IMG/VR virus record: IMGVR_UViG_638341086_000001
Span: 1-28,152 of that record
DNA length: 28,152 nucleotides
Source of the DNA: a virus
Taxonomy: Duplodnaviria > Heunggongvirae > Uroviricota > Caudoviricetes
Reading direction: 5' to 3' (one strand)
The notes beneath the pieces are model-generated. The model was not told where the DNA came from, searched no databases, and saw only the letters and a program-made list of their open reading frames with translations. Made by a program: the position numbers and the translations under genes. Positions 16,420 to 18,572 of this stretch are shown piece by piece. The stretch's first letter is position 1. Each line of letters begins with the position of its first letter.

Positions 16420-16626
16420 ATGGAAAAAATCACAACAGGTGTGTCATACACCACGTCAGCGGTGGGGACGGGATACTGGTTACTGCAGCTGCTGGACAAA
16501 GTCTCTCCGTCCCAGTGGGTGGCGATAGGTGTGCTGGGGAGTCTGCTGTTTGGCCTGCTGACGTATCTGACAAACCTTTATTTCAAGATTAAAGAAGATA
16601 AGCGTAAGGCGGCGCGGGGAGAGTAA
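16420..16626 (+). CDS. S: Class II pinholin (phage 21 S21-type)
   Basis: 68 aa, [68 protein letters not shown]; near-identical architecture to S21 as recalled (two TMDs, first is SAR-like, charged C-terminus). Confidence 0.8.
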
Positions 16627-16630
16627 AGCG

Positions 16631-16975
16631 ATGAAGAAAAAATACGAACTGGTTGTTAAAGGGATAAATAATTACCCGGATAAGATTACTGTTACTGTGG
16701 CACTGGAAATTGGTGGGTATCCGTCACTGTTGTTGCCAGATGTGGCGATTAGTCTTGACCGTACTGAAGGTGCCACGCTGGAGTTTTACGAAGCTGAGGC
16801 GAAAAAGCAGGCGAAGCCGTTTTTCATGGATGTTGCTGCCGGGTTATGTGAAGGGGATGGTCCGTTGCCGGAAAAGCGCCCCGTCATTTTAGAGGCGCAG
16901 GATGTGTTGATAACCTACAGAGGAAAACTACCGGGAATAATTACTGGTTCTCTGAAGACTCCACCGCTGGCCTGA
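16631..16975 (+). CDS. Hypothetical protein (114 aa) inserted between holin and endolysin
   Basis: ATG 4 nt after the holin stop with GGAGA upstream; MKKKYELVVKGINNYPDKITVTVALEIGGYPSLLLPDVAISLDRTEGATLEFYEAEAKKQAKPFF...; no family recognised. Confidence 0.5.
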   Translation: MKKKYELVVKGINNYPDKITVTVALEIGGYPSLLLPDVAISLDRTEGATLEFYEAEAKKQAKPFFMDVAAGLCEGDGPLPEKRPVILEAQDVLITYRGKLPGIITGSLKTPPLA

Positions 16976-17025
16976 AGACTTAGCATATCCAGGGATTTGA
17001 AATCGATAAACCCTGATAAATATCC

Positions 17026-17559
17026 ATGAACGCAAAAATCAGATACGGCCTGTCGGCTGCCGTTCTGGCGCTGATTGGTGCAGGGGCGTCTGCGCCTGAA
17101 ATCCTCGACCAGTTTCTTGACGAAAAAGAAGGTAACCACACCACGGCATACCGTGATGGTGCGGGTATCTGGACCATCTGCCGCGGTGCCATCCTGGTGG
17201 ATGGTAAACCTGTCGTCCCGGGCATGAAGTTGTCGAAGGAAAAATGCGACCAGGTTAACGCCATTGAACGTGATAAGGCGCTGGCATGGGTGGAGAAAAA
17301 CATCAGAGTGCCACTGACCGAACCCCAGAAAGCGGGGATTGCGTCATTCTGTCCGTACAACATTGGCCCCGGTAAGTGTTTCCCGTCGACGTTTTACAGA
17401 CGGATTAATGCTGGTGACCGCAGGGGAGCATGCGAGGCGATTCTCTGGTGGATTAAGGACGGTGGCAGAGACTGCCGTATTCGCTCAAACAACTGCTACG
17501 GTCAGGTCTCACGGCGTGACCAGGAGAGCGCGCTGGCGTGCTGGGGAATTGACAGATAA
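17026..17559 (+). CDS. R: SAR endolysin (T4-lysozyme-like muramidase with N-terminal signal-anchor-release domain)
   Basis: 177 aa; weakly hydrophobic G/A-rich N-terminus YGLSAAVLALIGAGASAP; catalytic triad spacing E-x8-D-x5-T in EGNHTTAYRDGAGIWT. Confidence 0.8.
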   Translation: MNAKIRYGLSAAVLALIGAGASAPEILDQFLDEKEGNHTTAYRDGAGIWTICRGAILVDGKPVVPGMKLSKEKCDQVNAIERDKALAWVEKNIRVPLTEPQKAGIASFCPYNIGPGKCFPSTFYRRINAGDRRGACEAILWWIKDGGRDCRIRSNNCYGQVSRRDQESALACWGIDR

Positions 17560-17650
17560 GCAGAATATTTTGCTGAAAAATGCGGTTTGCTCACACTGGC
17601 GGATAGCACGAAATCCTGCGAACTGGCAAAAACTAAGTGAATAAAAGTAA

Positions 17651-17686
17651 AACCCCGTTTGTTGGCTGCAAGCGGGGTTTTGTGTT
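17651..17686 (+). terminator. Rho-independent terminator-like hairpin after the endolysin
   Basis: AACCCCG-(loop)-CGGGGTT followed by TTTGTGTTT. Confidence 0.45.
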
Positions 17687-17756
17687 TCCTGACTCCGGAA
17701 AAGTCAAAGGAGAAAGTGTGTTTGATTTTAGCAAACTGATTCGGGAGATTCGAGTG

Positions 17757-17855
17757 ATGGCTGAAAAATTATCCACCTGGAAGTTCATCCTTATCTGGCT
17801 GGTGTTTGTGATTATGGCCTCCGGTTATTTCATCGGTCAGATACGCTGGTGGTGA
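17757..17855 (+). CDS. Hypothetical 32-aa single-pass membrane peptide translationally coupled to Rz
   Basis: ATG with GGGAGA 8 nt upstream; MAEKLSTWKFILIWLVFVIMASGYFIGQIRWW; stop TGA 1 nt before the Rz ATG. Longer ORF-track version (17637) rejected because its 5' part contains the terminator hairpin. Confidence 0.3.
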   Translation: MAEKLSTWKFILIWLVFVIMASGYFIGQIRWW

Positions 17856-17856
17856 A

Positions 17857-18351
17857 ATGAACCGCGTACTGTGCGTGGTCATCATTGCCCTGCTGGTGGC
17901 CTGTGGTGCGCTTAGTCTGGGGCTGAATCATTACCGTGATAACGCCATAACCTACAAAGAGCAGCGCGATAAAAAAGTCAGTGAGCTGGAGCTGGCAAAT
18001 GCAACCATTACTGATATGCAGCAGCGCCAGCGTGATGTTGCTGCACTTGATGCCAGATACTCGAGGGAATTAGCCGATGCGAGAGCTGAAAATGAAACTC
18101 TTCGCGCTGACGTTGCCGCTGGTCACCGCAGCCTGCGGATCAACGCCACCTGTCCAGGTCCCGTGCGTGAAGCCACCGGCACCGCCCGCGTGGATAATGC
18201 AACCGGCCCCCAACTGGCAGACACCGTTACACGGGATTATTTCACCCTCAGAGAGCGGCTGATGACGATGCAGAAGCAACTGGAAGGGGCACAGGACTAT
18301 ATCCGCACTCAGTGTACTAAGCAGGCTTTTTATTATCCGGAGGATGTATGA
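17857..18351 (+). CDS. Rz: Rz inner-membrane spanin (i-spanin)
   Basis: 164 aa; N-terminal TMD, ...NHYRDNAITYKEQRDKK...ITDMQQRQRDVAALDARYSRELADARAEN...RDYFTLRERLMTMQKQLEG closely parallels lambda Rz as recalled. Confidence 0.8.
   Translation: MNRVLCVVIIALLVACGALSLGLNHYRDNAITYKEQRDKKVSELELANATITDMQQRQRDVAALDARYSRELADARAENETLRADVAAGHRSLRINATCPGPVREATGTARVDNATGPQLADTVTRDYFTLRERLMTMQKQLEGAQDYIRTQCTKQAFYYPEDV
18077..18262 (+). CDS. Rz1: Rz1 outer-membrane lipoprotein spanin (o-spanin), embedded in the +1 frame of Rz
   Basis: Lipobox LVTAAC, proline-rich CVKPPAPPAWIMQPAPNWQTPLHGIISPSE matching lambda Rz1 pattern; true start probably the internal Met (MKLFAL...). Confidence 0.7.
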   Translation: MRELKMKLFALTLPLVTAACGSTPPVQVPCVKPPAPPAWIMQPAPNWQTPLHGIISPSESG

Positions 18352-18572
18352 AGAAATTACAGGTAACGGTAAAACCTTTTCAGGGAACAATTCCGTTCCG
18401 TGTTTTGCAACATGGCCGTGTTCTGCTTGAAGAGGTGTTCAGAGGTAAATGCACTGAATGTTATTCACGAACATATGAAGTGAATGCCACGCATGAAGAA
18501 TTCACCGTTGAGTGTGTGATGAATACTGATAAATGCCGAATGGTATCCGCTGAATTACAGCCAGTGTGTTGA
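18348..18572 (+). CDS. Hypothetical cysteine-containing protein (74 aa) coupled to the Rz stop
   Basis: ATGA overlap with Rz stop, GGAGG 5 nt upstream; MKKLQVTVKPFQGTIPFRVLQHGRVLLEEVFRGKCTECYSRTYEVNATHEEFTVECVMNTDKCRMVSAELQPVC with CxxC and Cx6C pairs. Confidence 0.45.
   Translation: MKKLQVTVKPFQGTIPFRVLQHGRVLLEEVFRGKCTECYSRTYEVNATHEEFTVECVMNTDKCRMVSAELQPVC

Follow-up and report, generated by a model that had tools for sequence, protein, structure and literature searches.

Three small genes interleaved with the lysis genes of an H-19B-type Escherichia coli prophage: probable independent accessory cassettes

The lysis cassette described here lies at positions 16420-18572 of a 28,152-nt stretch of viral DNA (IMG/VR record IMGVR_UViG_638341086_000001, class Caudoviricetes; hereafter the window) and, judged from its sequence, is the late lysis module of a lambdoid H-19B/Stx1 (Shiga toxin 1)-type E. 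coli prophage. All genes are on the plus strand. The first encodes a class II (phage-21-type) holin of 68 amino acids (aa) (16420-16626; PF04971 'P21 holin S', 1.2e-32; phrog_9876/phrog_20 'holin') and is followed by a gene for a 114-aa YdfR-family (DUF1327) protein (16631-16975; PF07041, 4e-45; phrog_406) and the gene for endolysin R, a 177-aa signal-arrest-release (SAR)-type enzyme of glycoside hydrolase family 24 (GH24) (17026-17559; PF00959, 5e-24; phrog_7). Between R and the i-spanin gene Rz lie a GC-rich, intrinsic-terminator-like hairpin with an A-tract and a T-tract on its flanks (17648-17682, from folding and covariation), a structured leader (17683-17717, from single-sequence folds and an RNAalifold consensus), and the gene for a 45-aa, putatively tail-anchored peptide with a single transmembrane (TM) segment and a GTG start (p45; 17718-17855; phrog_6632, 3e-29). 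Rz encodes 164 aa (17857-18351; PF03245, 1e-47; phrog_13) and contains the gene for the o-spanin lipoprotein Rz1, embedded in the +1 frame (18077-18262; PF06085, 2e-20; phrog_3198). The ATG of the last gene, which encodes a 74-aa protein modelled as a beta-sandwich and of unassigned function (p74; 18348-18572; phrog_2571), overlaps the Rz stop codon. The open reading frame (ORF) coordinates given for this region by a first-pass annotation all recur in the ORF list. The 114-aa ORF has its own ribosome-binding site (GGAG(AG) upstream, start 4 nt past the holin stop), and a terminator-like hairpin of 15 pairs lies between endolysin and Rz.

The core genes indicate a phage-21-type system made up of a pinholin-type class II holin, a SAR-type endolysin, and Rz/Rz1 spanins. 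They show the family matches, the catalytic motif and the embedded spanins of such a cassette but not the dual-start motif, which is absent in this holin allele. The holin scores 112 bits against a PF04971 cut-off of 26, placing it in the P21 S family, and its hydropathy profile contains one strong TM domain (residues 30-53), preceded by a weakly hydrophobic stretch at residues ~8-28 where a SAR-like first TM domain would be expected. The sequence at its start (16408-16422) reads ATA CAT CAG ATG and lacks the MxxM dual start, which most related holin loci encode as ATG TAC CAG ATG or ATG AAA TCC ATG; the single-start form is common to 26 of 129 related loci (L155, L046 and others). As there is no upstream methionine, only the 68-aa product is possible from this allele, without a built-in second holin product. 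The endolysin N-terminus is Gly/Ala-rich and weakly hydrophobic (residues 3-27), and the translation contains the catalytic motif E35-x8-D44-x5-T50, which fits a SAR endolysin; the protein thus has the characters of a SAR-type GH24 enzyme, with predicted membrane tethering. The Rz1 translation contains the lipobox ...LVTAAC, as expected for an embedded i-/o-spanin pair. In phage 21, the S21/R21/Rz21 cassette is contiguous and the holin has a dual start (S71/S68). The window shares with phage 21 the holin family (PF04971), the SAR-type GH24 endolysin, and the embedded spanins, but differs in its single-start holin and in the three interposed genes. Canonical lysis needs none of these three for its explanation.

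The peptide gene upstream of Rz had been read as a 32-aa, single-TM ORF ending 1 nt before the Rz ATG. The position of the stop codon holds (17855, with the Rz ATG at 17857), whereas the length probably does not: a 45-aa product starting at GTG 17718 is more likely. This GTG is preceded by a Shine-Dalgarno (SD) sequence, AGGAGA, at 17708-17713, alignments with homologues extend over residues 1-45, and the profile of PHROG 6632 has a length of 45 aa. Since Met14 (ATG 17757) is invariant, a 32-aa product from a second start is also possible. Codons 7-13 vary synonymously (Leu CTG/CTA/TTA/TTG, Ile ATT/ATA, Arg CGG/AGG/CGA/CGC), and the ratio of non-synonymous to synonymous substitutions (dN/dS) of the peptide against diverged copies is 0.11-0.42. 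Across all three small ORFs, dN/dS against diverged homologues is 0.11-0.45, which marks them as real genes under purifying selection, beyond chance ORFs. The peptide has a conserved, charged, amphipathic N-terminus (DFSKLIRExRxM), a hydrophobic stretch at residues 17-43 that forms its single TM segment, and a 5-residue tail (..IRWW); by the positive-inside rule, an N-in, tail-anchored topology is predicted. As start codons, only GTG and TTG occur. At the other end of the gene, TGG TGG TGA or, in a variant, AAG GGA TGA gives a G-rich, SD-like stretch that lies 1-15 nt ahead of the next start codon. In 47 distinct ORFs, among them GC-rich copies from Pseudomonas and loci detected by a codon-degenerate pattern, codons 3-6 (GAT-(T/A)TT-AGC-AAR, 17724-17735) show no synonymous variation, unlike the codons around them, which vary freely; on the minus strand, codons 3-6 read TGCTAAAAT, an extended -10-like motif. 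The 45-aa and 74-aa proteins, as well as a 48-aa peptide of related loci, have no match in Pfam, the PHROG lysis category, NCBIfam or PADLOC that would identify them as holins or antiholins; NCBIfam gave no match for any of the three small proteins, and PADLOC none for these three or the 48-aa peptide.

The 65-nt stretch with the hairpin at 17648-17682 folds with -23.8 kcal/mol (z = -3.75 against dinucleotide shuffles), and only 1 of 200 shuffles was as stable. The A- and T-tracts are themselves taken up into the stem, which is why a consensus terminator scan missed the hairpin. When 32 distinct leaders, drawn from nine or more genera, were aligned, 95.7% of the cells were paired and 8 of the 16 pairs were altered on both sides by compensatory changes; none of 500 shuffles was as good, and slid controls reached at most 72% paired. 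The hairpin thus has the form of an intrinsic terminator, a GC-rich stem-loop with a U-tract, which is structurally conserved and predicted to terminate transcription. With the A-tract upstream and the T-tract downstream, it is bidirectional in form. The aligned units show no sequence similarity between contexts upstream of the A-tract, and the hairpin is therefore taken as the left boundary of a mobile peptide unit.

The folds of the leader predict a helix between UUUCCU (17685-17690) and the SD sequence AGGAGA (17708-17713) that encloses an inner 4-bp stem (GACU 17691-17694/AGUC 17702-17705) with a 7-nt loop. Across units, the helix between UUUC(U/C) and the SD (GGAGA) consists largely of U.G pairs, and the inner stem differs by lineage with its complementarity kept (GACU/AGUC, CCUUG/CAAGG, CAUG/CAUG, CUUG/CAAG, CCUG/CAGG). 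The plus-strand fold is more stable than the minus-strand fold in 36 of 46 distinct leaders. Together with the U.G pairs, which become C.A mismatches on the minus strand, this assigns the hairpin and the anti-SD structures to the mRNA (plus) strand. An Rfam search (E ≤ 1) over 15900-19300 matched no family. In FourU-type RNA thermometers, a run of U pairs with the SD in a short hairpin. The leader is similar in that its UUUCU/UUUCC is predicted to form U.G and U-A pairs with the SD, but differs in that the helix is extended by an inner stem and preceded by a terminator.

A tblastn search from GTG 17718 found full-length homologues (residues 1-45 or 3-45) in three phages: Salmonella phage SPN3UB (67% identity), in the endolysin/Rz gap, Salmonella phage SEN34 (60%), among baseplate genes, and Pseudomonas phage YMC11/02/R656 (50%), among tail genes. 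In all four phages compared, the A-tract, GC hairpin, T-tract and a similar leader lie ~35 nt upstream of the peptide ORF. A DNA-pattern scan of IMG/VR yielded ~97 further copies of the unit with ~30 distinct peptide variants, and a codon-degenerate scan for the peptide in one genome per species yielded 10 loci, in Escherichia, Trabulsiella, two Citrobacter species, Yersinia, Sodalis, Brenneria, Pantoea, Pseudomonas, and Providencia. The hairpin is kept in all 10 and the GTG start in the nine enterobacterial ones; the Pseudomonas locus has a TTG start, read from the identical sequence of locus L110. Genes this small are rarely called, so that a protein homologue search with the 45-aa peptide returned little beyond close copies in E. 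coli.

According to a PHROG scan of the flanks, the unit occurs at the junctions of GH24 endolysin and Rz (phrog_13) in E. coli and Salmonella, of a GH19-type endolysin (phrog_181) and an Rz-like spanin (phrog_1026) in Citrobacter, and of a 161-aa peptidase-like protein and Rz (phrog_13) in the IMG/VR locus L062. It is also found between a baseplate (spike) protein and a wedge subunit (phrog_120) in SEN34 and Pantoea, and between tail assembly proteins I (phrog_32) and J (phrog_31) in Pseudomonas. It is always co-directional with the late genes, and in most contexts a gap of 1-22 nt separates the peptide stop from the start of the following gene. In SEN34, the unit begins at the hairpin, 15-20 nt past the upstream stop codon. 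Taken together, the comparison indicates that hairpin, leader and 45-aa peptide are a discrete mobile unit across phages of Enterobacterales and Pseudomonas. A further copy of the 45-aa peptide (89% identity), as in E. coli phage Rac-SA53, is found in the Actinobacillus phage vB_Apl-pPE4 (H104, PP818812.1; 37933-38067). The record is labelled as a phage of Actinobacillus pleuropneumoniae, an unexpected host; recent transfer could account for this, as could a wrong label or contamination of the record.

The R-Rz slot was also surveyed in 60 loci selected via YdfR and not via the peptide, 58 of which include Rz. Apart from the hairpin with p45, the slot can hold an antirepressor gene (Ant) plus another kind of TM peptide, 43-48 aa long (p48); a 231-aa gene, then a p45-like tail and p48; the hairpin and a TM peptide of 60 aa (type d), with either p48 or a TM peptide of 28 aa (type c) after it; or, in L200, a tandem of all four peptides. 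Downstream of the same hairpin and leader comes either p45 (114 copies, GTG start) or the 60-aa peptide of type d (23 copies, ATG start). These varied contents make the R-Rz slot a hypervariable locus of small membrane peptides, of which the window has the simplest version. The tandem arrays comprise up to four small single-TM ORFs, almost unspaced (L200, positions 1489-2052 of IMG/VR contig 2693429728_000009; also L168, L191, and L164). Three of the peptide families in the slot share a D-[FI]-S-[KR]-x-[LI] or SAELIR-like amphipathic N-terminus and a basic/Trp C-terminus.

Homology and structure searches of the 114-aa and 74-aa proteins, suggested in the first-pass annotation, identify the former as YdfR/DUF1327 and the latter as a phrog_2571 beta-sandwich protein outside Pfam. 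The 114-aa protein scores 152 bits against a PF07041 cut-off of 25, is named 'YdfR family protein' in RefSeq, and is 46% identical to K-12 YdfR over residues 1-74; the YdfR of the K-12 prophage Qin has 103 aa and an unlike C-terminus. Against a Salmonella homologue, its dN/dS is 0.41. The AlphaFold2 model consists of three beta-strands and a helix (residues 50-73) with a disordered C-terminus, and matches of this model to double-stranded RNA-binding domains are weak but recurrent; a PDB sequence search with the YdfR profile gave no match. Neither YdfR nor p74 has a TM segment or signal peptide. In E. coli/Shigella prophages, the family forms 282 clusters, with short forms of 114-116 aa and long forms of 176-183 aa, and Salmonella has a 168-aa DUF1327 protein between a holin of another family (PF16080) and the lysozyme. 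Wherever YdfR was seen, it lay between the endolysin and a holin of one of two families. As the locus search from YdfR gave only relatives at least 94% identical, this association rests on few loci across deep diversity.

Experimental work on K-12 YdfR found that it interacts with RNase E, for which its first 72 residues are enough, that the full-length fusion gave a bacterial two-hybrid (BACTH) signal only with RNase E 1-597, and that RNase E 1-598 co-purified with the Strep-tagged protein (PMC13232886). K-12 YdfR is cytoplasmic, and DNase-resistant nucleic acid co-purifies with it (PMC13232886). The position of YdfR is thus conserved, but the sole experimental lead is to RNA metabolism and not to the envelope. 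By analogy with its K-12 homologue, the 114-aa protein, modelled as a small beta3-alpha domain and predicted to be soluble and cytoplasmic, would most likely bind the catalytic half of RNase E and/or RNA, so that its role late in infection may lie in RNA decay and not at the envelope.

For p74, which had been described as a Cys-pair protein ATGA-coupled to the Rz stop, the overlap is present, but the Cys pair does not hold up: the CxxC is not conserved, and only C35 and C56 are. A zinc-ribbon or 'Cys-pair' function was rejected for this reason and because the model is a beta-sandwich. This model is all-beta with a confidence (pLDDT) of 87, and the protein has no Pfam match. Compared with Stx1_EH1995, which lacks the gene, p74 corresponds to a clean 255-bp insertion/deletion (indel) that swaps the last Rz codons (...TQCTKQAFYYPEDV vs. 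...TQCLN in Stx1_EH1995), so that a 10-residue C-terminal tail of Rz accompanies the 74-aa gene. In E. coli loci with p74, Rz is always 164 aa with the ATGA overlap, whereas Rz in Salmonella is 153 aa and is followed by a 24-nt gap before the p74 homologue. Homologues of 60-76% identity occur directly after Rz, and phage PhiR46_1 has a 36%-identical domain within a 286-aa protein between Rz and the terminase genes. An exhaustive search of 1.84 billion proteins with a hidden Markov model found 44 cluster representatives of the family, some embedded in longer proteins and one of these with a weak tail-tip match. Thus, p74 may be a cytoplasmic beta-sandwich protein, translationally coupled to Rz in E. 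coli, from a small family that appears to live in the Rz-terminase gap. Homology between p74 and YdfR was rejected (hhalign probability 0.6%). A metagenomic protein of 181 aa (P0066) combines an N-terminal domain of the p74 family with the C-terminal ~65 residues of a long-form YdfR, which it shares with the 183-aa protein P0198 (IEKLEGSVAxLNKKLSVLIPSEDEKKRRDE..FVKIFEEGKS). It is probably a single recombinant fusion, yet it joins both accessory families of the cassette.

The layout itself is ordinary. One E. coli chromosome matches the 2.6-kb stretch at 99.6% identity, many enterohaemorrhagic E. coli (EHEC) genomes at 98%, and Stx1a and Stx2c converting phages at 97-98%; 1065 of 5426 complete E. 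coli genomes contain at least 80% of it, with 98-99.6% identity. Phage H-19B (AF034975) is 98.2% identical across the 90% of the query that its record covers. H-19B and the EHEC Stx1a/Stx2c prophages have the same order of esterase, S, ydfR, R, hairpin and peptide, Rz/Rz1, and the 74-aa gene; the H-19B record stops inside the latter and annotates only S, R, and Rz, with otherwise no substantive difference. RefSeq labels the genes 'class II holin family protein', 'YdfR family protein', 'lysozyme', 'lysis protein', and 'hypothetical protein', and in some genomes also annotates a 72-aa hypothetical protein running through the hairpin. A survey of 279 Stx phages described the cassette as pinholin, SAR endolysin, and Rz/Rz1, with the interposed ORFs undiscussed (PMC8136144). 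In K-12, prophage Qin has the order essQ-ydfR-rrrQ-rzpQ/rzoQ, which resembles the window in that ydfR follows the holin gene after 4 nt and precedes the endolysin gene, but differs in that rrrQ overlaps rzpQ and thus leaves no R-Rz slot, in its DUF2514-type spanin, and in the lack of a 74-aa gene. With near-identical cassettes widespread, the gene order of Qin and the Stx-phage survey, the initial impression of an unusual arrangement was wrong, as this is a common H-19B/Stx-prophage layout. Nor does the premise that phage-21-type cassettes are normally contiguous apply to E. coli prophages, as DNA similar to this ydfR allele is present in 2922 of the 5426 complete genomes, with up to eight copies per genome. 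The identical sequence has been public since the H-19B record (1998), and the gene families are already named or catalogued. In the searchable literature, we found no description of the small ORFs between R and Rz, of a mobile hairpin-leader-peptide unit, or of a peptide slot; what is added here is a better gene model of the peptide, the mobile unit, and the hypervariable slot upstream of Rz. As a side observation on the state of this prophage, its gene for the large terminase subunit (TerL) is split into three ORFs (20425-20976, 20922-21497, and 21519-22085; region 20425-22085), while the region is 98.6% identical, with one gap, to an intact 553-aa TerL gene in locus L001. The prophage may therefore be defective, or the split may be a sequence error.

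Regarding the INDEPENDENCE of the three genes, every combination of presence and absence occurs in the fetched loci (94 loci bearing p45 or R/Rz and 60 selected via YdfR). The same holin is found both with and without YdfR, either slot type both with and without p74, and the R-Rz slot contains p45, Ant and p48, or something else. Prevalence differs as well: among the 5426 complete E. coli genomes, 2922 have ydfR-like DNA, 923 the peptide unit, which is usually unannotated, and 699 p74. From these combinations and the differing prevalence, we conclude that the three genes are not a co-inherited set. A scan for sigma70-like promoters on the plus strand found none at 16079-19300. We therefore favour, with a probability of roughly 0.6, the interpretation that the three genes are independent accessory cassettes on the late transcript. 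The first-pass annotation had left the choice between accessory lysis regulators and unrelated morons; the passenger alternative is better supported, by the separate presence and absence of the genes and by the peptide unit in baseplate and tail operons, although these genes do not fit the classical definition of a moron.

As defined in HK97 and HK022, morons have their own promoter and terminator and are inserted between genes that are adjacent elsewhere. The three genes resemble lambdoid morons as gene-sized indels in late operons, between genes adjacent in relatives and with a mosaic distribution, and discrete insertion is evident from the indel boundaries against Stx1_EH1995 and from the occurrence of all combinations. 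They have neither their own promoter nor a downstream terminator, the hairpin lying upstream of the peptide, and were thus not classified as classical morons. As promoter-less cassettes interleaved with the core, they would be expressed only via late read-through antiterminated by Q, and unmodified transcripts would terminate at the hairpin. The terminator-like hairpin upstream of the peptide and the SD-like end before the next gene suggest that the unit is expressed late and not from the prophage. The upstream terminator, an occluded SD, and a weak start codon may keep the peptide, probably an inner-membrane protein anchored by its tail with the N-terminus inside, silent in the lysogen and scarce late in infection. 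Such damped expression would fit a membrane-active peptide that is harmful in excess.

Several observations weigh against this interpretation or its parts. The position of YdfR and the recurrence of the peptide at endolysin/spanin junctions hint at a link to lysis, and a small TM ORF adjoins Rz in all 58 YdfR-selected loci with Rz. The pairing probability of the SD is 0.80 in native leaders vs. 0.64 in shuffled ones, a modest excess; no single leader sequence is significant for SD occlusion against shuffles, and occlusion is absent in the variants L062 and L142. Since a terminator would be costly in baseplate operons without known antitermination, the hairpin may act mainly as an RNA structure. 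The RNase E link of YdfR comes from a 46%-identical homologue and over-expression assays, and over-production of K-12 YdfR had little effect on the transcriptome (PMC13232886).

The strongest alternative, which we regard as possible but considerably less probable, is that at least one of the extra genes is a dedicated lysis regulator, with the peptides modulating pinholin triggering, SAR-endolysin release or the spanins, and YdfR affecting the expression or timing of S/R. Accessory membrane proteins occupy such positions elsewhere, e.g. LysA of P2 between K and lysB. The peptide unit is found at the endolysin/i-spanin junction of three cassette types (GH24, GH19, and peptidase-type) with two spanin PHROGs, its stop lies 1 nt before the Rz ATG, and each related R-Rz slot examined contains either one to four small TM ORFs (of four families) or Ant followed by a small TM ORF. 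YdfR, in turn, is always located between holin and endolysin, with two different holin families, and the single-start holin of the window has no built-in second product. However, relatives with a dual-start holin also carry YdfR and peptides, so that there is no complementarity, and each of the genes is missing from some close relatives. The unit is also present in baseplate/tail operons (SEN34, Pantoea, Yersinia, and Pseudomonas) with no lysis gene nearby in the fetched flanks, YdfR and p74 lack a TM segment or signal peptide, and none of the small proteins is homologous to holin, antiholin or spanin families.

Going beyond accessory cassettes as such, the hairpin, SD-occluding leader, and interchangeable tail-anchored peptides might represent an undescribed class of promoter-less 'micro-cassettes' that colonises late operons of temperate phages in Enterobacterales and Pseudomonas, with expansion, in lambdoid prophages, to a hypervariable array in the slot upstream of the i-spanin. 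In this speculative and, as a whole, rather unlikely scheme, the peptides would be dosage-critical membrane effectors that tune lysis at pinholin triggering, SAR-endolysin release or spanin activation. Processing or temperature would act on the structured leader to control how much peptide is translated, and the reported binding of RNase E by YdfR might tie RNA processing to this gate.

The peptide unit also invites comparison with type I toxin-antitoxin (TA) systems, as the toxins of hok, tisB, and zorO are small membrane peptides with translationally inert leaders. Like these, it encodes a single-TM peptide of less than 60 aa, with the SD sequestered in the leader and weak initiation, and its bidirectional terminator just upstream of the regulated start is reminiscent of sar/ant in P22. 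It is unlike hok/tisB/zorO in its lack of a toxin promoter and of sequence similarity, and in its co-directional placement in phage late operons. A type-I-TA-like or sar/ant-like pair would require a minus-strand promoter inside the first codons (extended -10 TGCTAAAAT, the reverse complement of ATTTTAGCA) producing a ~75-nt antisense RNA over the start codon and SD and ending at the hairpin. The synonymous invariance of codons 3-6 (GAT-WTT-AGC-AAR) in the 47 distinct ORFs would fit this promoter, the conserved A-tract upstream of the hairpin would supply a U-tail on the minus strand, and the product, 45 aa with one TM segment, has the size and hydrophobicity of a type I toxin, with translation that is predicted to be damped. 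But A/U-rich codons after a weak start explain the invariance equally well, there is neither a recognisable -35 element nor a toxin promoter, and no Rfam family matches. Because the U.G pairs of the hairpin variants and of the anti-SD helix would become C.A mismatches on the minus strand, and because the plus strand folds better in 36 of 46 leaders, we down-weighted this explanation and consider it very improbable. Finally, that the small ORFs are spurious or decaying, with the hairpin terminating the R transcript and the 32/45-aa and 74-aa frames untranslated, would agree with the usual omission of the peptide in RefSeq, the S, R, and Rz genes being the only ones annotated in the H-19B record, and a possibly defective prophage with a split TerL, but is scarcely credible and already contradicted by the comparative data, as the frames stay open at 42-70% amino-acid identity across genera with dN/dS of 0.11-0.45, SD and start codon are conserved, the p74 model reaches a pLDDT of 87, and both proteins have PHROG families.

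Some features were also noted in the flanks of the cassette. Upstream of the holin, a SASA/NanS-p esterase gene (14121-15971) is separated from it by a gap (15972-16419) that contains strong terminator-like hairpins on the plus strand, one at 16276-16293 and another, with TTTTTTGTTTT directly after it, at 16338-16364. According to a preprint, the prophage small RNAs PasA/PasC lie in exactly such a gap, with the sialate esterase gene on one side and the holin-lysozyme operon on the other (10.64898/2026.05.13.724894). Downstream, a leftward YlcI/YnfO-family gene (18941-19168, minus strand) lies between the lysis cassette and the HNH/terminase genes, with a minus-strand terminator-like hairpin at 18785-18809, ~130 nt downstream of it; this gene is a conventional opposite-strand insert in the Rz-terminase gap.

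The cassette is a standard lysis block of Stx prophages, carried by roughly one in five complete E. coli genomes, and the release of Stx depends on it, while three of its genes are without an assigned role and the peptide gene is usually unannotated. The 45-aa frame with its GTG start, the covarying RNA leader, the peptide slot upstream of Rz, and the RNase E lead for YdfR provide testable handles on these genes. If any of the three tunes lysis, the membrane peptide is the best candidate, and if it is true that such peptides tune lysis timing, the kinetics of toxin release and the burst size in EHEC would be affected.

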